From Romboutsia sp. (lineage in GTDB: Bacteria > Bacillota > Clostridia > Peptostreptococcales > Peptostreptococcaceae): 35,367 nt of DNA. A program made the translations under genes and the position numbers. Shown piece by piece: positions 1 through 25,041 of this stretch (the first letter of the stretch is position 1; each line of letters opens with the position of its first letter). Location of the stretch: NCBI GenBank assembly GCA_017889265.1, contig JAGHEK010000013.1:1-35367 (forward strand), read 5' to 3'. Under the pieces are notes generated by a model. The model was given only the letters and a program-made list of their open reading frames with translations, was not told the origin of the DNA and ran no database searches.

Positions 1-50
1 AACTTATACTACTAAATTAATAATACAATATATTTTTATGAAAATCAAGT

Positions 51-122: not shown

Positions 123-722
123 AAAAGAATAACATCCAAAGTCTCCTATAGTACCAGCAAATCTTCCTTTGTACTTACCTTTTTTGATGTAACTTCCTAA
201 AGCCTCCGTAGAATCTTCTATAACTTTTAAGTTATACTTATTAGCTACATCCATAAGTTTTTCCATATCAATAATATTTCCAAATATATGAACTATAATT
301 ATAGCTTTTATAACCTTATTAGTTTTTTTGTTAATTAAACGATTATTTTCAAATATACACTCATTTTCACAAAAATCTATTAGTTTATCTAAATCCATAT
401 TCAAAGTGTCATCGCAGTCCATAAAAATAGGTTCTGCTCCAACATACTTTACAGGATTTACTGTGGCTATAAATGTAAGAGTTGGAACTATTACTTCATC
501 ATTATTTGAAACATTACATAACCTTAAAACAAGATGAAGACAAGCCGTTCCACTCTGACAGGCAACAGCTTTCTCTACACCAAGATATTTAGAAATACTA
601 TCTTCAAAACTATTTATATACGAACCACCTGTAGAAACCCATTCTTTTTCTAGTGCATCATTTACATATTTTATTTCATTACCTTTTAAATTGGGTACCG
701 ATAATGGTATAAATTTATCCAT
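114..722 (-). pseudogene. DegT/DnrJ/EryC1/StrS-family sugar aminotransferase, N-terminal 202 aa only (stops just before the PLP-lysine motif)
   Basis: N-terminus IPLSVPNLKGNEIKYVNDALEKEWVSTGGSYINSFE...AVACQSGTACLHL...PTLTFIATVNP is typical of the family. The ORF ends ...GDFGCYSFNL*, where family members continue SFxxxK(PLP-Lys)xxxxGxGG (compare SFHPVKTVTTAEGG in the full-length PseC at 9438..10625). Only 113 nt remain to the window edge and they hold a hairpin plus T-run, not the missing ~170 codons. Confidence 0.65.
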
Positions 723-1727: not shown

Positions 1728-2837
1728 TTATTCTTCTTCATAAAATTCCATATGAACATCTCTTTTTACTATATCTTCTAGTAAATCACATATTCTTTCG
1801 TATGCATATTTTTCTTCATCCACATCAAAATACTCATCTATAGTCTCTTTAGGAACAGGGAACTCTATTTCCTTATTAGAATTATTAAATTCACAAAATT
1901 CTTCATACGTTCTAGTAAATTTTCCCGTGTTTAATAAATCATTATGCATATGATCTAATAAATCTATTGGTCTTATTATAGAACAATCTTTTTTCATAAA
2001 ATATATATCAGATATAGATGTACTATACCATATATGTATTTTATCACACACTTTTATCCAACTTCTTACAGTTTCATCTTTTATAATATGAAAATTACTA
2101 TATCTATTTTCTATATCCATTATATTCTCATCAACCGCTTCACTTGGATGTGGTCTATATATAAACTCACATTCATTTTCAACAATGTAATTTATAATCC
2201 ACTCTAATAACACTTTTCTAGTATTTTCTTCTAATTTTATCCTATCTTCAACTTCTATTTTACCATGTCTAACACTATAATACTCTTTTCTAGTACTAGT
2301 TAAATTAACCATACCAAAACTAGATATAAAAAGTATCCATTTTTTATTTTTATTAAGTCCGTATTCTACCGATATTTCTTCTTTAGTTTTATATAACGAC
2401 TCAAATCTATCTAAATCCATATCTATATTTAAACATCCAACTATCGGTGCATTTTCTTTTGAAATACCACCTTTCAAAAGCATATCTTGCATCCTCTTAC
2501 CCCAACATAAATGAATTGCATTTTTATTAATACCATCTGGAGTATGTAATTTTAGTTCATATTCATTGTTGCTAAAAATTTGTTCATACTGAAGATTAAC
2601 TATACGCTTTATCTTGCAATTAAATAATGATTTAAAAGTATCTAATTGCCATTCTTCGTAAAGATATGGAGTTAATATAGCATCTGGTTCAAAATCAAGT
2701 TTTTCTTTAGTTGCGTTATACATTCTAAACGGATCACATATATGTAATTCATGTCCTCTTCTATTCAACTCCGCTTTTAATAAATATGCATTTTGTAATT
2801 CTCTTTCCATTAACTCATAAAATAACACAAATTCCAT
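1728..2837 (-). CDS. Conserved hypothetical 369-aa protein, putative GT-B-like sugar or phospho-sugar transferase with RPHP motif; paralog of 12911..14017
   Basis: Long ORF with RBS AAAGGTAG. Well over half of positions are identical by eye to the 368-aa paralog (shared blocks ERELQNAYLLKAELN, DAILTPYLYE, KRIVNLQYEQI, NAIHLCWGK, NECEFIYRPHP, VRSWIKVCDKIH, EKYAYE). I recognised no other family signature. Confidence 0.5.
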   Translation of the reverse strand: MEFVLFYELMERELQNAYLLKAELNRRGHELHICDPFRMYNATKEKLDFEPDAILTPYLYEEWQLDTFKSLFNCKIKRIVNLQYEQIFSNNEYELKLHTPDGINKNAIHLCWGKRMQDMLLKGGISKENAPIVGCLNIDMDLDRFESLYKTKEEISVEYGLNKNKKWILFISSFGMVNLTSTRKEYYSVRHGKIEVEDRIKLEENTRKVLLEWIINYIVENECEFIYRPHPSEAVDENIMDIENRYSNFHIIKDETVRSWIKVCDKIHIWYSTSISDIYFMKKDCSIIRPIDLLDHMHNDLLNTGKFTRTYEEFCEFNNSNKEIEFPVPKETIDEYFDVDEEKYAYERICDLLEDIVKRDVHMEFYEEE

Positions 2838-2842
2838 ATATA

Positions 2843-4174
2843 CTACCTTTCAAATCTACAAAGTATATTTTCAAATATAATCTTATCACGACTATATATT
2901 TCTATCTTTTTATCAATTTCATAATTCAAATCATCAATTAACTGTTTCAATAAAATTTCTATAGGTTCTAGATAATTATCTGGTAAATTTTTTTTATCTT
3001 TAATATCCTTAATGAGACAATAGATATTGTCACAACTCTTGTACTTTAAAAATTTTTTATGACAAGATATTATTGATATAATTTGACTAATAACTTCAGA
3101 ATTTATCTTTTTTTCTTTTGTTATACTATTTAGTAAAATATCTAAATTTCTAATATTGTTATACTCCCTAGTATAAAACTGCTTCTTATAATTAAATTTC
3201 ATTCTATTATAAACATGCGGAGCATTGCACAAAATATCCATTTCAGTGATAATTTTACTTTCCAGTAAATCTACGCTACAGTTTATATATATATCCTCAA
3301 TATATTTTTTTAATTTATTTAATTTATACAAATCTCTTTTTTCATTTAGTAAGTTTATATATTTATTTATACATATTACGATATATTCTACTAATAAATT
3401 ATATAATTTAACATCTTCTATATTATTTAAAAGATTTTTAATTTCAATTAGTTCATCTGTAGTATAATTATAATTAAATTTAGTATTGTTTTCACTATCT
3501 TTAATTTCATAAGTACTTAATAGACAATAATTTTTATATCTTATGTAATCACAGCAAATAAAACTTTTTAATAGAAATAACTTACTAGAACGATGTATTA
3601 ATTCGTCAAAATAAACATTCTTACTTAAAATAAACATTCTTCTATATATATATATGTTTATATTCTCAATATCAATCTCTTTTATTAGTAATTTTTCTAA
3701 GTATTCCACTCCATTTATTATGTTATTATCTAAATAACGATCTTTACTAATAATTTCATACTTATCTTTTAATACAATATATTCATCATTCGTGTTTCTA
3801 TATTTATTAATGACTTTATAATCAACAGATAGTATTTGTAATTTATTTGACTCACATTCCTGATAATACATTTCCAATGCTTGAGATTCTAAAATATAAT
3901 TGCTATCTAAAAAAATTATATATTTACCTTTTGATAAGTTTATAGCGTCATTTTTACATTTATTTATAGTATGTTCATTTGAAAATAATATTTTTATATT
4001 TATATACTCATCAACAAAATACTTAATTTTGTTCATAAGTAGATCACTATCTATATGATTAGGTATACATAAAAATATTTCTATATCATTTAATGTCTGA
4101 TTCATAATACTATCAATACACTCAAGTAAATACTCGTCTATATTTATAACTTCAACTACAACACTTACATTCAT
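2843..4174 (-). CDS. GT-A (family-2-like) glycosyltransferase-domain protein with degenerate nucleotide-binding and DXD motifs, plus a ~200-aa helical C-terminal region
   Basis: 443 aa. The N-terminus VSVVVEVINIDEYLLECIDSIMNQTLNDIEIFLCIPNH...SKGKYIIFLDSNY follows the GT2 template (hhhhPxYN...LxSLxxQT..hEhhhVDDGS...GxYhxFhDSDD). The P-YN, DDGS and second DXD acid positions are replaced. RBS GGAGGGA. Confidence 0.55.
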   Translation of the reverse strand: MNVSVVVEVINIDEYLLECIDSIMNQTLNDIEIFLCIPNHIDSDLLMNKIKYFVDEYINIKILFSNEHTINKCKNDAINLSKGKYIIFLDSNYILESQALEMYYQECESNKLQILSVDYKVINKYRNTNDEYIVLKDKYEIISKDRYLDNNIINGVEYLEKLLIKEIDIENINIYIYRRMFILSKNVYFDELIHRSSKLFLLKSFICCDYIRYKNYCLLSTYEIKDSENNTKFNYNYTTDELIEIKNLLNNIEDVKLYNLLVEYIVICINKYINLLNEKRDLYKLNKLKKYIEDIYINCSVDLLESKIITEMDILCNAPHVYNRMKFNYKKQFYTREYNNIRNLDILLNSITKEKKINSEVISQIISIISCHKKFLKYKSCDNIYCLIKDIKDKKNLPDNYLEPIEILLKQLIDDLNYEIDKKIEIYSRDKIIFENILCRFER

Positions 4175-4188
4175 AACAGGTATCCCTC

Positions 4189-5634
4189 CTATAAATAATT
4201 TTTAATGTAATTACTGTATACTCTAAAATATGAGTTATAATTATCATCCATATTCATATACATCAAATATGATATATTCCTATTAACCAATGGGGATTCT
4301 TTAAATCTAAATTTTTTATTATTTTCTAAAATAAACAAATATTCTTTATATGCTGAATCATACATACAAGCTTCAAAGTTAAGAACTCCTAATCTGTAAT
4401 CTAAATCTTTATTGGTACTAACATCTGCCAAAGAAAAATTTCCTATGGAAATATTGCATATAAAATCTAACAAATCTTTTTCTTTAATTGAATATAAGTA
4501 AATCACTTCTGCCTTAAATACATCATTACAATAAATACTATTTAAAATAACATCCTTAATATTTTTGTAATCTTTTTGTTTAATCAGTAAAGATAAATAA
4601 ATATTATATAATTCCTCATTTTTATACTTTTCATATAGATCTTTAACTATCATAAATTTTTGTTTATCATTACGTATATATAAACCTAGTAAATAGTTAT
4701 TCTTTTCATACTCATTTTGTAGTGAATCAATATAATTTTTTATATCCCAATTGATATTAGAATTTAAAATACAGTCTAATGTAAATGTCTCATTAATACA
4801 TTTATCTATTAAGTATATATTTTTTCTGTTTTCAACAATTTTCTTATGATTATAAACATCTATGTTATTAGTAACTATAAAATCAGAATCTAAGCAACAT
4901 TCCTTTTCTAAAAATAAGTTAATATTTCTATCTAAAAAATGTTCAGTATAATAATTTACATTACTGTAATAAACAATTTTAGATCTATCTTTAAAAGGTA
5001 TCAAAGAACTTAATATATATAAATCACTATATACTAGTATAACATTACTATAATTTCTTAGTATGTACTCAACAATAACCATAATTTCACTAGAATTTAT
5101 CTCATACACATTAATATTATTTTCTTTATAGGATCTAGCATCATGTTTTAATAGATTATCATTTTTATCTATTCTTATTAAAACATTATTTTTATTTCTA
5201 ACATGTTCAAAAATCAAATCATCTTTATCTATATTAATCATTACAAAAGTATATAATTTTTCATTTAAAATATTTTCTATATCATTTTTTATAGAAACCA
5301 CTTCTTGAATTAAATCATTATCATCACTCAAAGCTATACATCTATCATAAAAATATAAAGCATCTTGTAAATTTCCCAACAGAACATTAAGATAACCCAT
5401 GTTATATAAAACATCAACATTAGAATTATCTATCTCAAAAGCCTTTAAAAAACTATCAACTGCTTCTGATAAATTATTTTCTCTAATAGCTACTATACCT
5501 TTCATAGAAAAATATGAAATATCTTCATTAGATAAAACTCCATATTTTTCAAGATATAATTTAGCATTTTCCAAATCATTTATATTAATTAAGTTTTCTA
5601 TTTCACTTTTTATTATTTCTAAATTATTTTTCAT
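4189..5634 (-). CDS. TPR-repeat protein with central alpha/beta-like region and C-terminal helical repeats; paralog of 15373..16938
   Basis: 481 aa. TPR-like helices in the N-terminal ~120 aa (AVDSFLKAFEIDNSNVDVLYNMGYLNVLLGNLQDALYFYDRCIAL). The central segment (VILVYSD...KIVYYSNVNYY...DFIVTNNIDVYN...NIYLID) alternates hydrophobic strands and helices. RBS GAAGAAGGG. Confidence 0.6.
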   Translation of the reverse strand: MKNNLEIIKSEIENLININDLENAKLYLEKYGVLSNEDISYFSMKGIVAIRENNLSEAVDSFLKAFEIDNSNVDVLYNMGYLNVLLGNLQDALYFYDRCIALSDDNDLIQEVVSIKNDIENILNEKLYTFVMINIDKDDLIFEHVRNKNNVLIRIDKNDNLLKHDARSYKENNINVYEINSSEIMVIVEYILRNYSNVILVYSDLYILSSLIPFKDRSKIVYYSNVNYYTEHFLDRNINLFLEKECCLDSDFIVTNNIDVYNHKKIVENRKNIYLIDKCINETFTLDCILNSNINWDIKNYIDSLQNEYEKNNYLLGLYIRNDKQKFMIVKDLYEKYKNEELYNIYLSLLIKQKDYKNIKDVILNSIYCNDVFKAEVIYLYSIKEKDLLDFICNISIGNFSLADVSTNKDLDYRLGVLNFEACMYDSAYKEYLFILENNKKFRFKESPLVNRNISYLMYMNMDDNYNSYFRVYSNYIKNYL

Positions 5635-5671
5635 TTTATAACCCTTCTTCTACAAAATAATTTATATTTAA

Positions 5672-5698
5672 TAATACGGTATTAATATATTTATTTTA
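5672..5698 (-). promoter_or_regulatory. Sigma-D/sigma-28-like promoter candidate for module copy B
   Basis: Minus strand reads TAAA-ATAAATATATTAATA-CCGTATTA (15-nt spacer), 38 nt upstream of the ATG at 5634. It lies just downstream of the pseI terminator. The same motif recurs at five other 5' regions in the window. Confidence 0.45.
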
Positions 5699-5719
5699 AC
5701 ACCAAAATAAATATAAATA

Positions 5720-5747
5720 CAAAAAAGAACTGTAAAAATTACAGTTC
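5720..5747 (-). terminator. Rho-independent terminator ending the module A-fliB-pse operon
   Basis: Minus-strand RNA GAACUGUAA-UUU-UUACAGUUC (perfect 9-bp stem, 5747-5727) followed by UUUUUU. It starts 8 nt after the pseI stop codon. Confidence 0.8.
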
Positions 5748-5755
5748 TCAAAAAA

Positions 5756-6796
5756 TTATTCAACCATATCAAACGATAAAGGAGTTCCTTTTTTCAAATC
5801 ATCATTAAACTTTTTACCCAAAACTTCATCATAATACTTAGTATGAAGTCCATATCCTGGTCTTATAGATCTTACATTCTCTTTAGTTATTATATCACCC
5901 TTTTTAACGTCTTTTACTATGAATAAAGATCTAGAAAACTCTCTACTTTTCATTTTCTTTTCATCTAGATCATAACTAACAATACCCATAGCTTTTTCAG
6001 CTTTTCTAACAGAATCAACCATAGCTTTAAACTCTTTTTTATCTAAAGAAAAATCTGCATCAGGTCCACCAATACTTCTGTCCAATATAAAATGTTTTTC
6101 TATAACCTTAGCCCCTAGTGCAACAGCTGTTATAGGAACCTCTATATCCATAGTATGATCAGAAAGCCCAACCGTAACACCAAATCTTTCTTTTAAATCG
6201 ACCATAGTATTTAAATTAGCATATTCTAATTTAGCAGGATACTGAGAAGTACATTTAAGTAAAATAATATTATCATTTCCTGCTTTTTTGCAAGTTTCTA
6301 CTGCTAGTTCTATATCATCTAAAGTAGCTATTCCTGTAGATATTATTATAGGTTTTCCTTTTGATGCAATATATTCTATAAGCGGTATATCGTTTATCTC
6401 AAAAGATGCTACCTTATATGCAGGTACTTCTAAATCTTCTAAAAAGTCAACTGCACTCTTATCAAAAGGACTAGAAAAACATACAAGACCTAAACTTTCT
6501 GCATATTCTTTTAATTCTTTTTGCCATTCCCATGGAGTATATGCTTCCTTATATAATTTATATAAAGTAGTTCCGTCCCAAAGTGTACCTTGGTTTATTT
6601 GAAAATACTCATTATCACAATCTATAGTTATAGTATCTGCTGTGTACGTTTGTAATTTTATTGCATCAGCTCCACATTCTTTAGCTGCTTTTATAGTTTC
6701 TTTCGCTGTGTTTATATCATGTCCATGATTAGCAGATAATTCTGCTATTATAAAACAAGGTGATTTATCATTTATCTTAAAATTTCCTATATTCAT
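5756..6796 (-). CDS. pseI: Pseudaminic acid synthase (NeuB family)
   Basis: 346 aa. NeuB signature CFIIAELSANHGHDINTAKETIKAAKECGADAIKLQTY and a C-terminal SAF-like domain (VKDVKKGDIITKENVRSIRPG). Sits in an operon with pseB, pseC and pseG. Confidence 0.85.
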   Translation of the reverse strand: MNIGNFKINDKSPCFIIAELSANHGHDINTAKETIKAAKECGADAIKLQTYTADTITIDCDNEYFQINQGTLWDGTTLYKLYKEAYTPWEWQKELKEYAESLGLVCFSSPFDKSAVDFLEDLEVPAYKVASFEINDIPLIEYIASKGKPIIISTGIATLDDIELAVETCKKAGNDNIILLKCTSQYPAKLEYANLNTMVDLKERFGVTVGLSDHTMDIEVPITAVALGAKVIEKHFILDRSIGGPDADFSLDKKEFKAMVDSVRKAEKAMGIVSYDLDEKKMKSREFSRSLFIVKDVKKGDIITKENVRSIRPGYGLHTKYYDEVLGKKFNDDLKKGTPLSFDMVE

Positions 6797-6806
6797 AAAA
6801 AACTCC

Positions 6807-7817
6807 TTAATAATTTAAAATGCTATCTACTATATTCTTGACACCATCATCATGTATAACATTTTTACTTAAATTATTCATTTTATACCTAGCTTCTTTA
6901 TTATCAATTAAAAAATTTACTTTTTCTAATAATTTATCTTTTCTTAAATCACTAAAATATCCCATATTAATCATAATACCTTTTTTATCAAACTCACAGG
7001 CTATATTTTCTTGATTTTCAGCTTGAACTATCAAAATAGCAGGGACTCCCACTTTACATAACTCATAAGCAGTACTTCCAGATGCAGATATAGCTATATC
7101 ATTATTTTTCATAATTTCAGAAATATTATCAGGGTTATATATTAAGTTTATATTATCATATTTTTTAGATATTTCCTGAATTTCATTGATACATTCAAAA
7201 GACTTACCAATTATCACATTGATATTTATGTTTAATTCTTTTATAGTATCTAGAATAAACGGAGTAAAATTATTTATATCACTTCCACCCATTGTAACAA
7301 GTATATTTTCTACTTTTTCTTTGACTCTAAAATTAAAGTCCTTTCTAAACTCCTCCCTAAGAATACAGTACCGACTACCTAATAATAATTTAGTGTCTTT
7401 ATCGATTAATTTATAATCTAAATTATTCGCATATATATTTCCATTTATTATTATATCACTAGGATAATTATATAAAGAATTATCGTCTATAGAGATAAGT
7501 ATCCTAACATATTGCTTAATTTTAAATAAATAATCATTACTTAGATTATATGAATCTGTTATGACACAATCTATATCATTATCTTTTATTATTTTTTCTA
7601 TTTCCAATATTTCGTCATCTAAATTATTAGAATTTATATTTATAAATTTGATACCTTGATTTATAAATATATCATTTACTTCTTTGCAAAATTTGGATAT
7701 AAAAAAAACTTCTATGTTTCGTTCTAAAAGTTCTTTTGCTATAGCTATGCACCTCATTATATGACCCATACCTATATTATTTCCACCATCAGCTCTTATA
7801 CCTATTGATTTAATCAT
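6807..7817 (-). CDS. pseG: UDP-2,4-diacylamido-2,4,6-trideoxy-beta-L-altropyranose hydrolase (PseG-type, GT-B fold)
   Basis: 336 aa. N-terminal IGIRADGGNNIGMGHIMRCIAIAKEL is the PseG signature (RAD...G.GH..R). Its start overlaps the upstream stop by 8 nt. No GNAT (PseH) domain is fused to it. Confidence 0.75.
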   Translation of the reverse strand: MIKSIGIRADGGNNIGMGHIMRCIAIAKELLERNIEVFFISKFCKEVNDIFINQGIKFININSNNLDDEILEIEKIIKDNDIDCVITDSYNLSNDYLFKIKQYVRILISIDDNSLYNYPSDIIINGNIYANNLDYKLIDKDTKLLLGSRYCILREEFRKDFNFRVKEKVENILVTMGGSDINNFTPFILDTIKELNININVIIGKSFECINEIQEISKKYDNINLIYNPDNISEIMKNNDIAISASGSTAYELCKVGVPAILIVQAENQENIACEFDKKGIMINMGYFSDLRKDKLLEKVNFLIDNKEARYKMNNLSKNVIHDDGVKNIVDSILNY

Positions 7818-8682
7818 TTATATATTCCTCTATAGAATAATCTTCTATTAGTAAAATGCTATCTTTCAATTTTAAATATAAACATTCTTTGTTATTAACT
7901 ACTTTTCCAATTTCTACATCATTATAATTTATAATATTACTATAATCTAAGCTTGCCTTCCATATTATAATTTTTTTATTATCATCAATTAAAAATGCCC
8001 CAGGATATGGTTTTGAAACAGCTCTTATAAGATTATAAATTTCTTTACCTGATTTATTTATGTCTATTAATCCATCTTCTGAAGTCCTTTTTCCAAAATA
8101 ACTTCCTTTGGATAAATCCTGCTTAATACCTTCATAAAACTTATCATTTTGTATTATTTTTATAGCTTTTAAAACTATACTAGGATATATATTTTTTACT
8201 TTTATTAATAAATCTTCTATATAATCATTTTCTTTTATGCATACCTTTTCTTGACATATTATATTACCAGTATCTATACCTTCTTCTATAAAATGAACTG
8301 TAACTCCCGTTTGTTTTTCTCCATTTATAATAGCCCAATTAAGTGGAGCTCTTCCTCTATATTTTGGTAAAATAGAAGCATGGGTATTTATACATCCATA
8401 TTTAGGTATACTAATGATTTCTTTCTTTAATATTTGTTCAAAATTAACAGACACTATTAAATCAATATTAAGTTTTTTTATATCTTGCAAAAATAAAGCA
8501 TTATTAATATTTCTTTCTTTATATAATACCAAATTATATTTATTAGCTATATCATCTACACCTCTATACCAATCATTAGCAGTATCTGTTATAACTACTC
8601 CTACAACTTCAATATTATTTTTTATAAGATTTTCTAGTGTTATAGCTCCTAATTCATGCCCTCCCATAAATAATATTTTCAT
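7810..8682 (-). CDS. Fmt/ArnA-like N-formyltransferase (probable sugar N-formyltransferase)
   Basis: Motif CINTHASILPKYRGRAPLNWAIINGEKQTGVTVHFIEEGIDTGNII carries the N-x-H...D catalytic triad and the SLLP-type loop of formyltransferases, followed by an Fmt_C-like tail. I chose the ATG at 8682 (RBS GAAGGTG 6 nt upstream). The track's 8691 start is a GTG inside that RBS. Confidence 0.8.
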   Translation of the reverse strand: MKILFMGGHELGAITLENLIKNNIEVVGVVITDTANDWYRGVDDIANKYNLVLYKERNINNALFLQDIKKLNIDLIVSVNFEQILKKEIISIPKYGCINTHASILPKYRGRAPLNWAIINGEKQTGVTVHFIEEGIDTGNIICQEKVCIKENDYIEDLLIKVKNIYPSIVLKAIKIIQNDKFYEGIKQDLSKGSYFGKRTSEDGLIDINKSGKEIYNLIRAVSKPYPGAFLIDDNKKIIIWKASLDYSNIINYNDVEIGKVVNNKECLYLKLKDSILLIEDYSIEEYIND

Positions 8683-8683
8683 A

Positions 8684-9430
8684 TTATTCACCTTCAGTCT
8701 TTAGCGCTTTTTGTTTTATATGGCTATTTATATTTTCTAGTTGTTTATTTGTTATCATAACTTTTAATATATCATCTAAATAAAAATCTTTACTGTCTAT
8801 ATATAAAAAATCGTATATTCTTTTTATAAGTTCAAAGTCTTCCTTGGTATCAAGTGTTAATCTATATTTTGAATAATCAATATCATTTTTATAATAATAT
8901 ATATCCTTTTCATTTTCATAAATATATGGTGTTACATGCTCTTTTTGATAATCTTTGTTTGCATTTTTGTATGCATTCTCTAAAGCATTAAAATCAAAAA
9001 TTTCAGTATCTAAACCTCTTGGATAAGTTCTATTATGTATATCTCCTGCATTAGTAACTAATCTATAATTACTTTTTAAGTAAAAACCTAACATTTCATC
9101 TATAACTAAATGGTCTATTAAAGGACAATCAGATGTTATTCTAATAACTATATCCGCTTTATTTTCCTTTGCACACAAATAATATCTACTTAAAACATCA
9201 CTTTCACTACCTCTAAAATATTTACATCCTATTTTTTTACATTCATCCACTATCTTATCATCTTGTTCTAAATCAGTAGTCGCTACTATAACTTCATCTA
9301 TATATTTAGATTTTTTAACTCTATCAACGACATGATTAAGAACAGTTTTACCTTTTAAATCTAATAAAACTTTCCCTGGTAACCTTGTTGAACCAACTCT
9401 TGCTTGTATTATAGCTACTATTTTTTTCAT
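8684..9430 (-). CDS. SpsF/FlmC-type cytidylyltransferase, probable CMP-pseudaminic acid synthetase (PseF role)
   Basis: 248 aa. N-terminus IVAIIQARVGSTRLPGKVLLDLKGKTVL is the CTP_transf_3/SpsF signature. It is the only nucleotidyltransferase in the pse operon. Confidence 0.6.
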   Translation of the reverse strand: MKKIVAIIQARVGSTRLPGKVLLDLKGKTVLNHVVDRVKKSKYIDEVIVATTDLEQDDKIVDECKKIGCKYFRGSESDVLSRYYLCAKENKADIVIRITSDCPLIDHLVIDEMLGFYLKSNYRLVTNAGDIHNRTYPRGLDTEIFDFNALENAYKNANKDYQKEHVTPYIYENEKDIYYYKNDIDYSKYRLTLDTKEDFELIKRIYDFLYIDSKDFYLDDILKVMITNKQLENINSHIKQKALKTEGE

Positions 9431-9437
9431 AAAAATC

Positions 9438-10625
9438 CTACTTTCTATAATAACCTAAAACTTTATTAACAGCATTTATCACATCATAAAAATCATCATT
9501 GCTCATTCCAGGATATAAAGGAAGAGTAATCATAGAATTATATAACTCTTCAGCATTTGGACAAAGACCTTTTTTATAGTCAAGGTTTTTATAATAAGGA
9601 TGCAAATAAACAGGTAGATAATGAACATTTACACCTATATTTTCTGCAAATAATGCCTCAAATATTTCTTTTCTACCAACCTTAAATTTATCTAAATCAA
9701 GTTTCATTATATATAAGTGCCTGCTTGTATCCGAAAATTCTCCTTCCTTTTGAATAATTACTCCATCTATTTTAGATAAATATTCATTATACATTCCAAC
9801 AAGTTCTTTTCTTCTTTTTATAAATCCATCTAACTTATCCATTTGAGTAATACCAAGAGCACATTGCAAATCAGTTATTCTATAGTTATACCCTAAATCA
9901 ATCTGTTCATAATACCAAGGTCCTTCATCTTTATTTTCCATAAACTCAGTATTTCTAGTTATTCCATGAGTTCTAAACAAAATCAATTTTTCATATAAAT
10001 CTTTTCTATTAGTAGTTATAATTCCACCCTCTGCAGTTGTAACAGTTTTCACAGGATGAAAACTAAACTCAGTCATATCAGAAATACTTCCAATAAACTT
10101 TCCTTTATATTTAGTGCCTAATGCATGAGCGGCATCTTCTATAACTATTAGATTATACTTTTTTGCCAATTCCAAAATAGGATCTAAATCAACAGATTGA
10201 CCAGTAAAATGAACTGGTATTATAGCTTTAGTTTTATGAGTAATCTTTTTTTCTATTTCATTTACATCTATATTATAAGTTTCTTTATCTATATCGACAA
10301 AAACAGGCTTAGCACCACAGTAGAGTATACAATTAGCAGATGCTGCAAAAGTCATAGGTGTAGTGATAACCTCATCATCCTCTTTTATCCCTGCCGAAAG
10401 ACAAGCTATATGAAGTGCAGCAGTACCATTGGATACTGCTACAGCATACTTTGAACCAACATAATCAGCAACCTTTTTCTCAAACTCCGAAACTGTAGGT
10501 CCTGTAGTTAAATAATCTCCATTTAATATATTTACTACTGACTTTATGTCATCCTCATCTATAACTTGCTTACCATATGGTAAAAATTTATTTCTTACAG
10601 GAGTTCCTCCATTTATAGCTAACAA
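9438..10625 (-). CDS. pseC: UDP-4-amino-4,6-dideoxy-N-acetyl-beta-L-altrosamine transaminase
   Basis: 395 aa, full-length DegT-family protein. Has LPYGKQVIDEDDIKSVVNILNGDYLTTGP...AVAVSNGTAALHIA and the PLP-lysine motif FSFHPVKTVTTAEGG. Lies directly downstream of pseB. Confidence 0.8.
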   Translation of the reverse strand: MLAINGGTPVRNKFLPYGKQVIDEDDIKSVVNILNGDYLTTGPTVSEFEKKVADYVGSKYAVAVSNGTAALHIACLSAGIKEDDEVITTPMTFAASANCILYCGAKPVFVDIDKETYNIDVNEIEKKITHKTKAIIPVHFTGQSVDLDPILELAKKYNLIVIEDAAHALGTKYKGKFIGSISDMTEFSFHPVKTVTTAEGGIITTNRKDLYEKLILFRTHGITRNTEFMENKDEGPWYYEQIDLGYNYRITDLQCALGITQMDKLDGFIKRRKELVGMYNEYLSKIDGVIIQKEGEFSDTSRHLYIMKLDLDKFKVGRKEIFEALFAENIGVNVHYLPVYLHPYYKNLDYKKGLCPNAEELYNSMITLPLYPGMSNDDFYDVINAVNKVLGYYRK

Positions 10626-10639
10626 ACAAAATCACTCCT

Positions 10640-11659
10640 TTATTTTTCTAGCTTATATATACCTAGTTTTTCCATTTCATTTCTTAAATCTTCAATACTC
10701 AACCACTCAGCATTATTTCCAGAATTATATTCAAACCCATTTTCTATAGGTTTACCGCCTTCTGTAAAATAACTCTCCTTATTCCACCAATCAAAATGTG
10801 GATATATTATATAGTGTTTTTCGTATTCATAAGTAGTTCTAGAATCATCTTTAGTAACCATCACTTCGTGAAGTTTTTCACCTTCTCTTATACCTACATG
10901 CTTTAATTTGCATCCAGGTAACATAGCTTCTGCTAAATCAGTTATCTTAAAAGAAGGAATTTTTGAAATATAAGTTTCTCCACCTTTCGACTCTTCCAAT
11001 GCCTTTAAAACTAAATCTATACCTTCTTCAAGGCTTATCCAAAATCTAGTCATATTAAAATCAGTTATAGGAAGTTCATCTACTCCTTTTTCTATTAAAT
11101 CCTTAAAAAACGGTATTACAGAACCTCTACTACCTGCTACATTTCCGTATCTAACTACCGAAAAAATAGTTCCTTTATCTGCTGCATAAGCATTTGCCGA
11201 AATAAAAAGTTTATCCGATACTAACTTAGTTCCTCCATATAAATTAATTGGATTAACTGCTTTATCAGTAGATAATGCTACAACCTTTTTGACTTTTCTA
11301 TCTATTGCTGCATCTACTACATTTTGCGCTCCGTTTATATTAGTCATTATAGCTTCAAAAGGATTATATTCACAGGCAGGTACTTGCTTCATCGCAGCAG
11401 CATGAACTACATAATCAACTCCATCAAATGCTCTATATAGTCTATTTTTATCTCTTACATCACCTATGAAAAATCTAAGCTTAGATAATTTTTCTGGCAT
11501 TTCTATCGATATTTCTTTTTTGAATAAATCTTGCTTAAATTCATCTCTTGAAAAAATTATTACTTTTTTAGGAGAATATTTTTTTAAAATCATTTTAGTA
11601 AATGATTTACCAAAGCTTCCTGTTCCTCCTGTTATAAGTATTGTTTTATTATTTAACAT
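10640..11659 (-). CDS. pseB: UDP-N-acetylglucosamine 4,6-dehydratase (inverting)
   Basis: 339 aa. Motifs KTILITGGTGSFGKSF, IIFSRDEFKQ, LRFFIGDVRD, HAAAMKQVPACEYNPFEAIMTNINGAQNV, VVALSTDKAVNPINLYGGTKLVSDKLF. This is the classic PseB/FlaA1 pattern. Confidence 0.9.
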   Translation of the reverse strand: MLNNKTILITGGTGSFGKSFTKMILKKYSPKKVIIFSRDEFKQDLFKKEISIEMPEKLSKLRFFIGDVRDKNRLYRAFDGVDYVVHAAAMKQVPACEYNPFEAIMTNINGAQNVVDAAIDRKVKKVVALSTDKAVNPINLYGGTKLVSDKLFISANAYAADKGTIFSVVRYGNVAGSRGSVIPFFKDLIEKGVDELPITDFNMTRFWISLEEGIDLVLKALEESKGGETYISKIPSFKITDLAEAMLPGCKLKHVGIREGEKLHEVMVTKDDSRTTYEYEKHYIIYPHFDWWNKESYFTEGGKPIENGFEYNSGNNAEWLSIEDLRNEMEKLGIYKLEK

Positions 11660-11677
11660 TTATATCACTTCCAAATT

Positions 11678-12895
11678 TTATTTTCCTATCATTAATATCA
11701 TATGATTTATTGTATTTTGATTATTGTCTTTCAAATATTCATATATTCTATTGTTAAGTGTACTATCGTGCAATAAAGCTTTGCTATAATTTTGTATTAA
11801 AGAAACTAGTCTTTCTATATTCATATCATTTTTATAATAAGCACACATACCTATAATATTTAATTTTACTATAACAAAATTAACTATCAAGTTCATATAA
11901 GATAATATTATATTACCTTTATTGTTATATGGAAATAAATTGTTAAATATATAATTTACTAAATAATTTTCATATATATACTCTTTGTCTTTTATAAATT
12001 CTTCGTATGTTCCATTAATAGTATCTATAAATTTATTTCTAGAATTTTCTATGTTATCTATATACAATTCTAAACCTTCAATCATATGTTGTATATTTTC
12101 TCTATATCTTTCATTAAACATAGATCTATTTGGTATAATATTATTCGATAATAAAAATAACAAAGAAAATTGTGCTTCTATTGTATTATCTATACTTATC
12201 TTTTCTAATATATTGTTATAGTATCCTCTGTTTATATTAATATTATATTTATCTATTATACTCAAAATATTACATTCCTCAATAGTATCTAATTCATTAA
12301 AAAATAAACCTAGTATTATTAATCTTTCCTCTATCACAAATTTTCTATTTTGAAGTAATGTTATAGAAAATTCACGAAGTTCATAAAAATATTTTTCTAA
12401 AATATTTTTACTATTTATAGAATGTATATTTTCAGATATCATTATTTCAGATAATTCTTCTTCAACTAACTCAAATTCCATCATATTTTCATTCAATAAA
12501 ACTAATCTTGCAGCTTCTATACAAGATAAAGTTAAAGCTCCTTGAATAACACCATCTACACAATTATATGCTCTTGGATAACTTCTACAAGTATAACACA
12601 TACTATCTTCCCCTAATATACTATATATGCTACATAAATTATTTTCATCTAAAAAAACACATTTATTGTCGTATAATTTAAACCTTGCAAAATTATAATC
12701 ATCAGTTGCTTTCCTGTTCCTAGAAGTGTGTTGTTGTAATTTTTTCCTCATATTTATATTTTTGCATTTAATATACTTTTTATAAGTTTTTTTATCTATA
12801 GTAATATCCCATCCTTTACAACATGTGTCTTCACAATTACTTCCTATACATTTAAATTTATCAAAATACTGTGGTTTAAGTATTTTATATCTCAT
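11678..12895 (-). CDS. fliB: Flagellin lysine-N-methylase (FliB family)
   Basis: 405 aa. N-terminus FDKFKCIGSNCEDTCCKGWDITIDKKTYKKY matches the Salmonella FliB cysteine motif (C-x-GS-x-C-x-D-x-CCKGW-x-IT-x-DK-x-T-x-KKY). Further Cys blocks follow (NKCVFLDENNLCSIY, CYTCRSYPR). Size matches FliB (~400 aa). Confidence 0.8.
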   Translation of the reverse strand: MRYKILKPQYFDKFKCIGSNCEDTCCKGWDITIDKKTYKKYIKCKNINMRKKLQQHTSRNRKATDDYNFARFKLYDNKCVFLDENNLCSIYSILGEDSMCYTCRSYPRAYNCVDGVIQGALTLSCIEAARLVLLNENMMEFELVEEELSEIMISENIHSINSKNILEKYFYELREFSITLLQNRKFVIEERLIILGLFFNELDTIEECNILSIIDKYNININRGYYNNILEKISIDNTIEAQFSLLFLLSNNIIPNRSMFNERYRENIQHMIEGLELYIDNIENSRNKFIDTINGTYEEFIKDKEYIYENYLVNYIFNNLFPYNNKGNIILSYMNLIVNFVIVKLNIIGMCAYYKNDMNIERLVSLIQNYSKALLHDSTLNNRIYEYLKDNNQNTINHMILMIGK

Positions 12896-12910
12896 ACTAA
12901 TATCCTTTCA

Positions 12911-14017
12911 TTAATCGTCATAAAAATTCATCTTTGTATCTTTGATAACTATATCTTCAAGCACATCACAAATCAATTCATATGCATATTTTTCTTTATC
13001 TATATAAAAATTTTCTAGTATTAAATTTTCATCAATAGGAAATTTGGTTATATTATCATTATCATTAAATTGCTTAAATCCTTCATAATCAGTTATAAAA
13101 TTTCCATCATTAGTTAAACCGTTATGCATCCATTCAGCTATAGGTATTGGTCTAAGTATAGAGCAATTTTTTTTCATAAAATATATATCAACTATCGAAG
13201 TACTTATCCACGTATGTATTTTATCACACACTTTTATCCAAGATCTAACCGAATCATTTTTTATTATATGGAAATTTTTATTATTTTCCTGAATAGAATA
13301 TATTTTTTTATCTAATGCTTCTGCTGGATGAGGTCTATATATAAACTCGCATTCATTATCTGATATATATTTTTCGATCCACTCCAATATTATATTTCTA
13401 CTAGTTGTATCAACTTCTATTCTTTCATTTATTCTATCATTTCCAAAACGAATAGCATTATATTTTTTTCTCATTTCACTTAAATTAACCATTGCAAAAC
13501 TCGAAAGAAATATTATCCATTTTTTGTTGGTATCCAAATCATACTCCATCGCAATCTCATCTCTTTTTTTAAAAACACTATTAAATCTTTCTCTATCCAT
13601 GTCAACATTCATAGATCCAGTTATTATACAATTTTCTTTAGGCACCCCATTTTTCACCATATTATCATACCACTTTTTACCCCAACACAAATGAATAGCA
13701 TTTCTATTTAATCCTTTAGGTATATGAAAGCCTATTTCATTATGTCCTTTAGTCAATATTTGTTCATACTGTAAATTTACAATTCTCTTTATTTTAGTAT
13801 CAAATATTTCTTTGAAAATCATTAACTGACCATCCTCATATAGATATGGTGTTAAAATAGCATCTGGAGTAAATTTTAATTTTTCTTTAGTTATATTTAT
13901 CATATAAAATGGATCACAAATGTATAAATTATGTCCTCTTTTATTAAGTTCTGCTTTTAGCAGATATGCATTTTGTAATTCTCTTTCTGTACACTCATAA
14001 AATAATACAAAGTCCAT
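12911..14017 (-). CDS. Conserved hypothetical 368-aa protein, putative GT-B-like transferase with EDG and RPHP motifs; paralog of 1728..2837
   Basis: RBS AAGGAG. E61-D62-G63 (YLYEDGQL) and H230-P231 (FIYRPHPAEA). Tail motif VRSWIKVCDKIHTWISTSIVDIYFMKK resembles the C-terminal half of CMP-sugar or CDP-alditol dependent GT-B enzymes. Confidence 0.5.
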   Translation of the reverse strand: MDFVLFYECTERELQNAYLLKAELNKRGHNLYICDPFYMINITKEKLKFTPDAILTPYLYEDGQLMIFKEIFDTKIKRIVNLQYEQILTKGHNEIGFHIPKGLNRNAIHLCWGKKWYDNMVKNGVPKENCIITGSMNVDMDRERFNSVFKKRDEIAMEYDLDTNKKWIIFLSSFAMVNLSEMRKKYNAIRFGNDRINERIEVDTTSRNIILEWIEKYISDNECEFIYRPHPAEALDKKIYSIQENNKNFHIIKNDSVRSWIKVCDKIHTWISTSIVDIYFMKKNCSILRPIPIAEWMHNGLTNDGNFITDYEGFKQFNDNDNITKFPIDENLILENFYIDKEKYAYELICDVLEDIVIKDTKMNFYDD

Positions 14018-14027
14018 ATAAACTCCT

Positions 14028-15353
14028 TTATAAATTTAGTAATATATTTTTAAATTTATCCTCCAAAAAATTATAATAATTTAACTTTTCATTTATAGAA
14101 AATTCTATATTTTGAATAAGAATATATAGGTTATCCTTAATAGCATCAATATCACCAATAATTACATCTGAACATTCATTAAGATATTTTTTCAGATTGT
14201 CATAACTTTTATATTTTTCAAAATATTTATTGCTAGACAGAAGCTCTTCTAAGACTCTTCGGTCATCTTTTGATAATATTTTATTTTTCTCTATATCATT
14301 AATTATATTAGTTACAGTGTATATATCGTTATAGTGATTTTTATACGAGTTTAATAAATTATTCTTGGTTCTTTCATATAGTATAGGAGAATCTATCAAT
14401 ATTTCGCTTTTTATTTCAATATCTATAAGTTCTTGTTTTTGAGACATATTTTTTATATCATCTATATATTTACTTGCTTTAATCATATCGTCTAAATCAT
14501 AGTTTAATTTCAATTGTTCAACAATACCTTCTATTATCTTAAACATATCATCAAGAATATTATGACATATTCTCAAATCTATAGTTATGCAATCAAAGTA
14601 TATGTTTTTTAATTTATTTAATAATTCAAATCTATATTTTATAGCATTATATCTTGTATAATAATTATCCTTGTATATATTTTTATATACTTTTATATAT
14701 TTTATACTGTTTGATAAATACTGTATTTTATTTACTTTGATTAATGTTTCTAAGATAAATGTATAACAAAAATTAGGAAATTCTTCATTAAAGTATATAT
14801 TTTCTTTTTTTAAAAAACTTTTACTATATACATACATATTTATATCATATATTTCTAAATCTTTCGCTTTGAGCTTAGAGTAAAATTCAGTTCCTTTATA
14901 TAACCCCTCATTTATAAATCTATTTTTATTGGTAAAATCTATTTGCTTTACAACTTCTGTTGAATACTCGTGCATTGTTGATACTTTTTCTGGATTGTAT
15001 GAACAATCAAAGGTTAATATTTCTGATTTAAATATTTCTATATTATTATATAACTCTTCTAATGCATTCTGCTTAAATAAAGACATTCCATCACAAAAAT
15101 ATATATATTTACCAGTAGATAAATCTATCGCCTTATTCTTTAATTTATTTATATTATCATCTTCTGATGTCAATAAAGTAATATTCTTATATTTTTCAAT
15201 ATAATTTTGTAATAAATTAATATTATTGATATTACTTCTTGGAATGCAAATTATTATTTCATATGAATCTAGTCTTTGATTTAAAATGCTTTCGATACAA
15301 TCAAAAATAGTGTCATCTATTCTTACAATAGTTAGTACAACTGTAAATTTCAT
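14028..15353 (-). CDS. GT-A (family-2-like) domain protein with degenerate motifs plus helical C-terminal region; paralog of 2843..4174
   Basis: I chose the ATG at 15353 (MKFTVVL...) because AAAGGAGA lies 4 nt upstream. The track's 15386 start would overlap the upstream gene. Sequence FTVVLTIVRIDDTIFDCIESILNQRLDSYEIIICIPRSN...STGKYIYFCDGMS shows CIP in place of DDGS and DGM in place of DXD. Confidence 0.55.
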   Translation of the reverse strand: MKFTVVLTIVRIDDTIFDCIESILNQRLDSYEIIICIPRSNINNINLLQNYIEKYKNITLLTSEDDNINKLKNKAIDLSTGKYIYFCDGMSLFKQNALEELYNNIEIFKSEILTFDCSYNPEKVSTMHEYSTEVVKQIDFTNKNRFINEGLYKGTEFYSKLKAKDLEIYDINMYVYSKSFLKKENIYFNEEFPNFCYTFILETLIKVNKIQYLSNSIKYIKVYKNIYKDNYYTRYNAIKYRFELLNKLKNIYFDCITIDLRICHNILDDMFKIIEGIVEQLKLNYDLDDMIKASKYIDDIKNMSQKQELIDIEIKSEILIDSPILYERTKNNLLNSYKNHYNDIYTVTNIINDIEKNKILSKDDRRVLEELLSSNKYFEKYKSYDNLKKYLNECSDVIIGDIDAIKDNLYILIQNIEFSINEKLNYYNFLEDKFKNILLNL

Positions 15354-15372
15354 ATAATCTCCTTTAGTAGTT

Positions 15373-16938
15373 TTATATACTTTCAACTAGTACCTTATAA
15401 TTTTTGTAGTATTCTTTATAGTTATCATTCTGATGCATATACATTAGATATGCTATATTTCTATTTGATATAGGTGAATTTATCAGGTTATATTCACCGT
15501 CTATCATTTTTAAATACATTTCATAAGAAGCTGTGTATTTACTAGCTTCAAAATTTAAAATGGCTAATCTATAGTCAATACAATCATCAGAATAAACGTC
15601 TGCTAGCGAAAAATTATGTATAGATATATTTATGATAAATTCCAACAAGCTAAAATTTTTTAAAGAATATAAATATAATATTTCAGCTAAATATATTTTT
15701 TTACAATATTTACTTTTAAGCATCGTGTCTATAATTTTTTCGAATTTTCTATTTCTTAATAATATAGAAATATAAATATGATAAATTTCTCTTGTTTCAT
15801 ATTCTTTATATAAATTTTCACACAATTTTTCTAATTCTTTTATATTGTAGTTTTTAAACCCTATGTCAAAAATCTTCATCATATACTTACTTTGATTATA
15901 TTCCTCATAATTTTCTAATTCTCTTATAAAATATTTATCGTTGGTATCAAAATACTTGTCGTTTAAAATTCTATCTGTAGTAGCATCTTTGTGTAATTTC
16001 TTATCTATAAAGTACATGTTATTTCTATTCTCAATAATTTTCTTATAATTATAAAAATTGATATCATTAGTAACTATTAAATCTGCATTTTTACAACATT
16101 CTTTTTCTAAAAACAAATTGACATTTCTATTAGTATAATATTTTAAGTCTGTATAATAATTAATATTCTGATAATATATAACTTTTATTTTATTTTTAAA
16201 CTTCATTATCAAATCCTGTATATTTACATCATTATATATTAACACTATATTGTCATAATTTCTTAAAATATATTCTATAATTAACTCTACTTTATTTGAG
16301 TTTACTTCATAATTTTTGATATTTGTATTATCTAAGTATAAATTTTCTTTGTCTATATTATCACTATATCTAACTTTTATAAAAATATTCCCACTATTTC
16401 TAGTATGATCAACTAAATTATAGTCATTAAACGAACCCAACATCAAAAAAGTAAATTTTTTATCTGGTAAATTATATACTATTTTTTTCTTTATATTTTC
16501 AATTTCATTTAATATATTTGTATCTTCTGTTATACTTAAACACCTATCATAAAAATATAGAGCTTCCTTAAGATTTCCAAGCAATATGTTTAAATATCCC
16601 ATATTATATAAACTATCAACATTATATTCATCAATTTTTAGAGATTCTAAAAAACAGTTTAATGATTCTTCTAAATTATTTTCTTTAAGACAAAGTATTC
16701 CTTTAAATGAATAGTACTTATCATCACAACCAATATTGTATTTATAACTTTCTAAATATTTTTTAGCTTCTTCTAATTCATTGCTATTTATACAATTTTC
16801 TATAATTTTTTCTAATTGATAACCAGTATAATTATCCATATAATTATACTCTGCTTTATTAGTATATTTTAATATTATACTTTTTAACTCTTCATCTTGA
16901 CTTAAAATAAGATTTCTTATTTTATTTAAATTTTTCAT
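15373..16938 (-). CDS. TPR-repeat protein; paralog of 4189..5634
   Basis: I chose the ATG at 16938 (MKNLNK...) with RBS AGAGGGA 5 nt upstream. The track's 16953 start is a TTG overlapping that RBS. TPR block LESLKIDEYNVDSLYNMGYLNILLGNLKEALYFYDRCLSI is nearly identical to copy B. Confidence 0.6.
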   Translation of the reverse strand: MKNLNKIRNLILSQDEELKSIILKYTNKAEYNYMDNYTGYQLEKIIENCINSNELEEAKKYLESYKYNIGCDDKYYSFKGILCLKENNLEESLNCFLESLKIDEYNVDSLYNMGYLNILLGNLKEALYFYDRCLSITEDTNILNEIENIKKKIVYNLPDKKFTFLMLGSFNDYNLVDHTRNSGNIFIKVRYSDNIDKENLYLDNTNIKNYEVNSNKVELIIEYILRNYDNIVLIYNDVNIQDLIMKFKNKIKVIYYQNINYYTDLKYYTNRNVNLFLEKECCKNADLIVTNDINFYNYKKIIENRNNMYFIDKKLHKDATTDRILNDKYFDTNDKYFIRELENYEEYNQSKYMMKIFDIGFKNYNIKELEKLCENLYKEYETREIYHIYISILLRNRKFEKIIDTMLKSKYCKKIYLAEILYLYSLKNFSLLEFIINISIHNFSLADVYSDDCIDYRLAILNFEASKYTASYEMYLKMIDGEYNLINSPISNRNIAYLMYMHQNDNYKEYYKNYKVLVESI

Positions 16939-16967
16939 AACAATCCCTCTCAAAAATATATATTTTT

Positions 16968-16995
16968 ATATACGGTATTATTATATTTTATTTTA
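16968..16995 (-). promoter_or_regulatory. Sigma-D/sigma-28-like promoter candidate for the module A-fliB-pse operon
   Basis: Minus strand reads TAAA-ATAAAATATAATAATA-CCGTATAT (16-nt spacer), 30 nt upstream of the ATG at 16938 and just downstream of the flagellin terminator. Confidence 0.4.
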
Positions 16996-17006
16996 TATAA
17001 AATTAT

Positions 17007-17039
17007 AATAAAAAAGAGATAAAGTTTTGCTTTATCTCT
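17007..17039 (-). terminator. Rho-independent terminator of the flagellin gene
   Basis: Minus-strand RNA AGAGAUAAAG-CAAAA-CUUUAUCUCU (perfect 10-bp stem, 17039-17015) followed by UUUUU. It starts 9 nt after the flagellin stop. Confidence 0.8.
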
Positions 17040-17047
17040 TATGATTA

Positions 17048-25014: not shown

Positions 25015-25041
25015 TAATACGGTTACTTTATATTTTACTTA
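25015..25041 (-). promoter_or_regulatory. Sigma-D-like promoter candidate for the late flagellar operon
   Basis: Minus strand reads TAAG-TAAAATATAAAGTAA-CCGTATTA (15-nt spacer), 33 nt upstream of the ATG at 24982. Confidence 0.4.

Follow-up and report, generated by a model that had tools for sequence, protein, structure and literature searches.

Paralogous cassettes, each leading a predicted nonulosonic-acid operon, in a putative flagellin glycosylation island of an uncultured gut Peptostreptococcaceae-like bacterium

Only two enzyme classes, Maf and FlmG, are to our knowledge known to attach sialic-acid-like sugars to flagellin. The locus described here, which lies on a 35,367-nucleotide stretch of Romboutsia sp. 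DNA (contig JAGHEK010000013.1, positions 1 to 35,367; hereafter the window), may represent another route. The island contains complete-looking pathways for pseudaminic acid (Pse) as well as legionaminic acid (Leg) but no Maf, and a conserved, repeatedly duplicated cassette centred on a TIGR04396 protein is found instead. Each cassette consists of a tetratricopeptide repeat (TPR) protein, a GT2-like protein of the GT-A type and an RPHP protein. The reading favoured here, to which a probability of about 60% is attached, is that an island for flagellin glycosylation lies in the window and holds two paralogous cassettes of ancient origin, each of which would lead one nonulosonic-acid operon.

Two paralogous cassettes behind a flagellin gene

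The window is AT-rich, with a G+C content of ~ 26% throughout, and the minus strand holds nearly all of its genes. The features on which the argument rests, given in the direction of transcription, are as follows.

17048..18229, minus strand, flagellin gene, 393 aa, presumed acceptor (NCBIfam flagellin models; Flagellin_N/C in the gene calls)
17014..17040, minus strand, terminator-like hairpin and T-run after the flagellin gene
16970..16980, minus strand, upstream motif TAATACCGTAT of cassette A, promoter-like
15373..16938, minus strand, cassette A gene 1, TPR protein, 521 aa (Pfam TPR matches)
14028..15353, minus strand, cassette A gene 2, GT2-like GT-A protein, 441 aa (PF00535, 38 bits)
12911..14017, minus strand, cassette A gene 3, RPHP protein, 368 aa, candidate CMP-nonulosonate transferase (TIGR04396, 145 bits)
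11678..12895, minus strand, fliB, flagellin lysine-N-methylase (NF038110, 295 bits)
5756..11659, minus strand, whole Pse operon (NCBIfam equivalog matches; tight intergenic gaps)
10640-11659, minus strand, pseB (NCBIfam)
9438-10625, minus strand, pseC (NCBIfam)
8684-9430, minus strand, CMP-sugar-type cytidylyltransferase gene (NCBIfam)
7810-8691, minus strand, formyltransferase gene (NCBIfam)
6807-7817, minus strand, pseG (NCBIfam)
5756-6796, minus strand, pseI (NCBIfam)
5725..5749, minus strand, terminator-like hairpin and T-run after pseI
5674..5684, minus strand, upstream motif TAATACCGTAT of cassette B, promoter-like
4189..5634, minus strand, cassette B gene 1, TPR protein, 481 aa (Pfam; BLASTP against the cassette A protein)
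2843..4174, minus strand, cassette B gene 2, GT2-like protein, 443 aa (PF00535)
1728..2837, minus strand, cassette B gene 3, RPHP protein, 369 aa (TIGR04396); its last ~ 100 nt (1728-1831) form a conserved segment
738..1718, minus strand, legB, NAD-dependent 4,6-dehydratase, first gene of the Leg pathway (TIGR04180, 530 bits)

Cassette A (12911-16938) and cassette B (1728-5634) were found to be colinear, with the same gene order and orientation and all genes on the minus strand, and independent gene calls agreed on this layout. BLASTP detected homology over essentially the full length of all three products. The RPHP proteins are 59% identical over 368 aa without a gap (E 9e-168), the TPR proteins 45% identical over 474 aa (E 8e-130) and the GT2-like proteins 30-32% identical, with 30% over 450 aa in BLASTP (E 1e-36). 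The first-pass annotation had described a duplicated three-gene module with this order and these gene sizes and had judged its divergence to be uneven, and both observations are borne out by the alignments.

At the codon level the DNA of the two copies is 69% identical for the RPHP genes, 62% for the TPR genes and 54% for the GT2-like genes, and the synonymous divergence (dS) is 0.9-1.2, at or near saturation. The ratio of nonsynonymous to synonymous divergence (dN/dS) is 0.35 for RPHP, 0.37 for TPR and 0.61 for GT2-like, so that the per-gene analysis that had been proposed to check the duplication indicated purifying selection on all three genes. Purifying selection was also evident when the cassette genes were compared between strains (dN/dS 0.16-0.31). 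These are not the values of a recent segmental duplication, the DNA being 54-69% identical, dS being about 1 and the longest exact run being 29 nt. A phylogenetic tree of RPHP proteins, which took in related loci (each denoted by L and a number), placed an A-type clade (cassette A of the window, cassette A of L010, the L014 cassette and nine metagenome clusters) apart from a B/C-type clade. Each of the two clades spans several lineages, and the A/B split is therefore old. By these sequence comparisons, cassettes A and B are ancient paralogs whose separation predates several lineages.

The perfect DNA matches between the cassettes that had been pointed out earlier, 2033-2061 with 13213-13241 (29 nt) and 2784-2807 with 13964-13987 (24 nt), are indeed exact and maximal, and a further match of 22 nt was found (1989-2010 with 13169-13190). 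All three lie inside the RPHP gene with the same offset, 11180, in each case, and they cover the peptides ERELQNAY and SWIKVCDKIH, in which R12/E13/N16 and W260/I261/D265, respectively, are invariant among 63 family members. Recent gene conversion was considered as the source of the 24-29-nt matches and was rejected, because the matches fall on these family-invariant residues; the exact runs are better accounted for by selection acting on conserved motifs, the genome being AT-rich and its codon use strongly biased. The best-conserved block of TPR-gene DNA (4802-4931 against 16001-16130, 81% identical) corresponds to the central alpha/beta domain of the protein, outside the TPR repeats.

Both cassettes share their entry as well as their content. 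The same 11-mer, TAATACCGTAT, stands ~ 45 nt before both TPR start codons, each time past a terminator-like hairpin, and the earlier remark that each copy has its own promoter-like motif can thus be made more precise. The 11-mer was also found upstream of cassette B of L010 and of the single cassette of L014, and is not present upstream of cassette C of L010. Three minus-strand copies of its core, ACCGTAT, are present in the window (25023, 16976 and 5680), all of them in an intergenic position ~ 45 nt before a start codon, and the one at 25023 precedes a DUF327 gene of the flagellar region (open reading frame (ORF) 24560-24982). The core may represent a flagellar-sigma-type promoter element, perhaps a -10 element. 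A sigma-70 promoter scan of the AT-rich window returned 162 hits against 167 expected. For the TPR gene of cassette A, ATG at 16938 is a more likely start codon than TTG at 16953.

Cassette A starts 110 nt past the flagellin gene, which lies directly upstream. Within each block the genes are separated by gaps of only 5-19 nt, so each cassette is most simply regarded as the leading part of an operon. From gene order and predicted functions, cassette A is most simply read as leading fliB and a pseudaminic-acid operon of the formyltransferase variant, and cassette B as leading a legionaminic-acid operon.

Variation of the island among relatives

Several metagenome samples contain the sequence of the window again, and in them the layout with two cassettes is unchanged. 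The more distinct islands are these.

L078: after the flagellin gene, cassette A, fliB, the pse operon and then unrelated genes; one cassette, Pse only
L014: after the flagellin gene, one A-type cassette, fliB and a leg operon; no pse genes within 10 kb
L076 and L077: pse operon, B-type cassette and complete leg operon; an RPHP gene upstream of fliB is visible only in L077, and both loci are cut there
L010, a 94-96% identical strain on a 715-kb contig: cassette A, pse operon, cassette B, cassette C and complete leg operon
L010 14014-17894: cassette C, between cassette B and legB, with a TPR protein of 475 aa, a GT2-like protein of 428 aa and an RPHP protein of 369 aa
L073: fused GT2+TPR protein, three full RPHP paralogs and a 326-aa RPHP-related ORF, a cassette-type GT2-like gene and then a leg operon

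The fused gene of L073 (3278-5512) encodes a canonical GT2+TPR protein of 744 aa and has the flagellin gene as its immediate neighbour on one side and an RPHP gene on the other.

The copy number of the module thus ranges from one to three among relatives. The first-pass annotation had further suggested two parallel modification channels. Comparative support for this came from the observations that B/C-type cassettes were seen only where a leg operon follows (L007, L010, L076 and L077), that the Pse-only island L078 has cassette A alone and that L014, with leg genes as the only sugar genes in a range of 10 kb, has one module; the equation of A with Pse and of B with Leg is left unproven. Taken as a whole, the distribution among relatives supports the idea that one cassette is associated with each sugar operon, and the paralogous cassettes would then serve as separate channels for different donor sugars, different acceptor sites or both.

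The manner in which cassettes are gained and lost was considered next to a specific proposal. In it, recombination between A and B, as direct repeats, would remove fliB together with the pse operon, and the hybrid cassette that remains would be a routine form of strain variation. The repeats are direct and have exact runs of 22-29 nt in common, and recombination at the cassette level does happen between the far more similar 3' ends of cassettes B and C. Recombination of the RecA type drops steeply with divergence and requires longer identical runs, notably in Gram-positive bacteria. At 54-69% DNA identity, with dS at about 1 and no exact run above 29 nt, A and B are very poor substrates, and homologous recombination between them is unlikely. 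None of the ~ 10 related islands was found to be an A/B hybrid, and the single-module island L014 retains fliB and is therefore not the predicted deletion product. The proposal is hardly credible as an account of the variation seen here.

A different recombination site was located by comparison of the window with L010. The RPHP gene of cassette B is 93-100% identical to its L010 counterpart along the gene body, and that of L010 cassette C is just 57-86% identical to the window as far as about position 1831 of the latter. In the final ~ 100 nt, B and C of L010 are both ~ 96% identical to the window, and the final RPHP codons of the window together with the downstream legB gene track cassette C of L010, not cassette B. 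The presence or absence of cassette C consequently maps to a crossover in a segment of ~ 95 nt that belongs to the RPHP gene's 3' end and hardly differs between cassettes B and C of L010, the event being either a deletion in the lineage of the window or an insertion in that of L010. Among the B/C-type genes of five islands, identity was 0.62-0.86 in the gene body and ~ 0.9 in the RPHP 3' segment and legB. Judged by these identity profiles, the RPHP 3' segment and legB constitute a conserved anchor beside a variable cassette.

Divergence between close relatives proved to be a mosaic. Between the window and L010, dS is 0.004 for the TPR gene of cassette B, the product of which is 100% identical in the two strains, 0.17 for the adjoining GT2-like gene and 0.22 for legB. 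Between the window and L002 most genes of the island are identical, and the flagellin, pseC and cytidylyltransferase genes show dS values of 0.11-0.22. This pattern in L002 and L010 indicates patches imported by recombination.

A single gene of the pse operon has also been exchanged. The formyltransferase gene (window 7810-8691) is replaced in L010 (7377-7829) by a gene for a 150-aa GNAT acetyltransferase, with flanks that are 94-96% identical. This formyltransferase/acetyltransferase swap should alter the N-acyl group on pseudaminic acid.

At its downstream end the window holds a further kind of change, represented by two features.

114..722, minus strand, legC fragment comprising the 5' part (202 codons out of ~ 385) and broken off at window position 121 (match to TIGR04181 over profile positions 1-193 of 359)
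1..120, minus strand, end of an IS200/IS605-type element with hairpin and T-run, inserted after TTTTAA in legC

The contig L007, which is 98% identical and comes from another sample, matches the window up to position 121 and then continues with a full legC gene of 385 codons and eight more called genes of the leg region; an intact 385-aa LegC is likewise encoded in L010. Two unrelated metagenome contigs, L074 and L075, carry an element whose flank is 92-93% identical (~ 124 nt) to window positions 4-126. This element encodes an IS200-type TnpA (133 aa) and TnpB (362 aa), and the transposase genes themselves fall outside the window. The sequence TTTTAA precedes the element end both in legC and in the matching elements, and the element end folds as a long hairpin followed by a T-run. 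Contigs of other samples end at window positions 73-98, as is expected at a repeated element. The possibility that positions 1-120 mark a deletion junction inside the leg operon was rejected, as the relatives do not have this sequence in their downstream leg genes and it matches the end of an insertion sequence.

The operon of copy B had been described earlier as ending in a LegB-like dehydratase and a truncated aminotransferase. The dehydratase and its membership of a leg operon stand; the truncation is that of a legC gene disrupted by an insertion sequence and not a natural operon end. What remains of the leg operon may continue on the far side of the element, past the edge of the window. 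The strain is probably a natural Leg-pathway mutant.

In summary of these routes, strains would vary by gain or loss of whole cassettes with or without their operon, by recombination in the conserved anchors formed by the RPHP 3' end and legB, by the swapping of single tailoring genes and by insertion sequences that inactivate genes.

Candidate roles of the three cassette proteins

The RPHP protein is the candidate for the catalytic component. Both copies exceed the curated cutoff of TIGR04396 ('surface carbohydrate biosynthesis protein', 125 bits), with 145.3 bits for A and 139.7 bits for B. RPHP A also matches NF046086, the BFO_1060 glycosyltransferase family, at E 1e-20 and 74.1 bits, which misses the curated membership cutoff of 200 bits. 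The Tannerella forsythia proteins BFO_1060, Tanf_01245 and TFUB4_00887 are transferases for Pse or Leg derivatives and bear the HP motif of bacterial sialyltransferases; in knock-outs the sugar is lost from the O-glycan and the CMP-sugar still accumulates (PMC5420450).

An AlphaFold model of RPHP A (pLDDT 94.7) has a GT-B fold, and the best Foldseek matches were UDP-GlcNAc 2-epimerases, the polymerase TagF of teichoic-acid synthesis and a capsule polymerase that is TagF-like and whose structure was determined with CMP (TM ~ 0.55-0.6). A search of PDB sequences with RPHP produced no meaningful match. Within the YRPHP motif, H230 is invariant and P231 is present in at least 90% of 63 sequences, so that the protein combines the GT-B fold with the conserved HP motif that marks bacterial GT-B sialyltransferase-like enzymes. 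Genomic context is in keeping with a role in nonulosonate metabolism: a nonulosonate pathway gene lies within 10 kb in 47 of the 58 genome loci with an RPHP homolog, and a NeuB-type synthase in 40 of them. By analogy, on the HP motif and the distant Tannerella relatives, the RPHP protein would transfer the CMP-activated nine-carbon sugar.

In a full-library profile search with the RPHP family, 2845 clusters passed E ≤ 0.001, and most of them are proteins of 430-460 aa that stand alone. No architecture like that of FlmG was present in the best 150 of these 2845 clusters, and among nine longer homologs scanned no TPR fusion was found, one of them carrying a fused GT4 domain. A 368-aa protein of the L007 leg operon that has no Pfam match was tried as a further RPHP paralog and was rejected as such.

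The AlphaFold model of TPR-A (pLDDT 86.8) shows TPRs at the N-terminus (residues 39-156), an alpha/beta domain in the centre (163-310) and helical repeats at the C-terminus. Foldseek matched the model to TPR proteins only (among them OGT, SPY and Tom70). A relationship of the central and C-terminal parts to the RPHP family was examined by profile-profile comparison and rejected, none being found. By analogy with the TPR domains of FlmG and Maf-1, the TPR protein would recruit flagellin. Word-based homolog searches gave at least 18 matches to the TPR protein and at least 10 to the GT2-like protein.

The GT2-like proteins score 38.3 bits (A) and 32.2 bits (B) against PF00535, above the gathering threshold of 23.3. 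When aligned to the solved GT2 enzymes 3bcv, 5hea and 2z86, they were seen to have lost the DDGS nucleotide-binding motif, which reads IPRS in A and IPNH in B, and the DXD metal site, which reads DGM in A and DSN in B. Both motifs are gone from seven of seven cassette-type members (window A and B, L010 A, B and C, L014 and the 436-aa protein of L073), and the fused GT2+TPR protein of L073 retains DTGS and DADE. Ordinary catalysis with a UDP-sugar and Mn2+ is consequently unlikely. Between strains the GT2-like genes are nevertheless under purifying selection (dN/dS 0.23-0.31), and the product is probably an accessory or specificity subunit, or else a metal-independent transferase.

These motif losses bear on the idea of a two-step glycan, in which the GT2-like protein, guided by the TPR protein as a split version of the Clostridioides-type GT2+TPR enzyme, puts a hexose or N-acetylhexosamine on Ser/Thr of flagellin and the RPHP protein caps it with Pse or Leg. 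Such a scheme would accommodate the sugar acceptor used by the characterised distant relatives of RPHP, the canonical 744-aa fusion that L073 encodes between its flagellin and RPHP genes, and the selective maintenance of the GT2-like genes. The loss of DDGS and DXD from all seven cassette proteins, two motifs that persist in the solved GT2 enzymes and in the fusion of L073, speaks against it, and the scheme appears rather unlikely.

Several metagenome contigs break inside the GT2-like gene of cassette B (2843-4174), L002 and L003 with their ends and L007 with its start, and L002 and L007, which derive from one sample, overlap there by 30 nt. These breaks point to a branch between co-existing strains.

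Comparison with known systems and neighbouring genes

Zero Pfam matches to the Maf domain (MAF_flag10/PF01973) were found among the ORFs scanned across the window and the gene calls. One of the closest known systems is FlmG of Caulobacter and Brevundimonas, in which flagellin is bound by a TPR part and the choice of Pse or Leg falls to a GT-B part (PMC7591256; bioRxiv 10.1101/2022.03.25.485807). The cassette similarly pairs TPR and GT-B components beside pse or leg genes, and has paralogs tied to different sugar operons. Compared by description, FlmG differs in that TPR and GT-B are separate proteins in the window, with a DXD-less GT-A-like protein encoded between them, and in that the TPR protein of the window additionally possesses an alpha/beta domain and, at its C-terminus, helical repeats.

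The Maf systems (bipartite Maf-1; tripartite Maf-2 with GlfM) resemble the cassettes in another way, as several diverged paralogs occur beside Pse/Leg genes in a flagellar glycosylation island, the paralogs are thought to differ in donor or site specificity and some Mafs need a separately encoded partner. Besides the missing domain, the difference lies in the candidate catalytic fold, which is GT-B in the window and GT-A-like in the Maf domain. Tannerella Tanf_01245 and TFUB4_00887 share with RPHP the GT-B/TagB-like type and the HP motif; they are encoded just after a CMP-Pse/CMP-Leg locus, in strain-specific Pse or Leg versions. Unlike the candidate system, these enzymes of ~ 445 aa add the sugar to N-acetylmannosaminuronic acid in an S-layer O-glycan, not to flagellin. 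With the GT2+TPR systems of Clostridioides and Clostridium, the island shares a site after flagellin and fliD, a highly variable content and TPR and GT2 markers of predicted flagellin glycosyltransferases (PMC13317340), but it encodes its TPR and GT2-like proteins in different genes, and its GT2-like protein is without catalytic motifs.

Diverged transferase paralogs and high variability are expected in flagellar glycosylation islands (PMC13317340, PMC2674064), and the duplication as such is thus ordinary. Less ordinary is the make-up of the cassette: it is Maf-free, has no FlmG-type fusion, centres on a family to which no function is assigned and has a pseudo-GT-A partner that is conserved. 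In a survey of Clostridium flagellar loci, nonulosonic-acid transfer is credited to Mafs and TIGR04396 proteins are left unmentioned (PMC13317340), and no description of the TPR/GT2-like/RPHP trio was found in the literature searched.

It could be that the cassettes do not act on flagellin at all, the nonulosonic acids being destined for a cell-wall polymer or S-layer glycan and the flagellar variable region just collecting surface-glycan genes. Terrisporobacter vanillatitrophus (L016 10001-13385) has three tandem RPHP paralogs before a pse operon, with MBOAT/DHHW genes upstream and zero flagellar genes, an arrangement that in itself suggests pseudaminic-acid decoration of a cell-envelope polymer. 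Most TIGR04396 loci, moreover, have no flagellin gene within 10 kb, and cell-envelope genes have been described in the flagellar variable region of one Clostridium species (PMC13317340). In the window, though, cassette A begins 110 nt past the flagellin gene and is predicted to be co-transcribed with fliB, the ACCGTAT core also stands before another gene of the flagellar region (25023), and the cassettes have no accompanying membrane or lipid-carrier genes. Every TPR or GT2-like partner that was found lies in a flagellar context (the window, L010, L014 and L076-L078; in L073 the cassette-type GT2-like gene alone was examined). Cassette position, fliB and this flagellar-only distribution of the partners make a non-flagellar role unlikely, indeed quite improbable.

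Some findings have to be set against the reading of an island for flagellin glycosylation in which each sugar operon has its own cassette. The match that links RPHP to the Tannerella transferases falls short of their family cutoff (74 against 200 bits) and was obtained for copy A only, and with 2-epimerases among the best structural matches the fold alone cannot separate a transferase from an epimerase or hydrolase. The TIGR04396 homologs of Terrisporobacter stand in a non-flagellar context and the acceptor of the Tannerella enzymes is a sugar, not a protein (PMC5420450), so that direct transfer onto Ser/Thr of flagellin is unproven. The central domain of the TPR protein was without recognisable relatives in Foldseek and in a PDB profile search, which returned TPR matches only. 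Finally, L014 couples an A-type cassette with leg genes; cassette type is not cleanly sugar type, and sugar specificity is therefore unreadable from cassette type alone.

One further interpretation of these data, advanced tentatively and as somewhat less than an even bet, is that the trio forms a third, hitherto undescribed class of machinery for sialic-acid-type modification of flagellin, independent of Maf and FlmG. The GT-B protein would transfer Pse or Leg, its partners would supply acceptor recognition, and the cassettes would behave as plug-in units, each wired to one sugar operon and exchanged at the anchors. If the cassette is such a transferase system, a family of ~ 2800 sequence clusters would gain a function and protein sialylation a new architecture, and the natural one-, two- and three-cassette strains, together with the natural legC knock-out, would lend themselves to the study of donor and acceptor specificity.

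An Rfam scan of the whole window found no RNA families. Upstream of the flagellin gene, in the direction of transcription, one group of features was recorded.

Upstream of the flagellin gene, minus strand, chemotaxis genes, flgK/flgL, fliW, csrA, fliS, fliD and a FliT-like gene

Amid the chemotaxis genes a gene for an NlpC/P60 cell-wall hydrolase (26240-27037, plus strand) is the sole sizeable plus-strand gene of the window.

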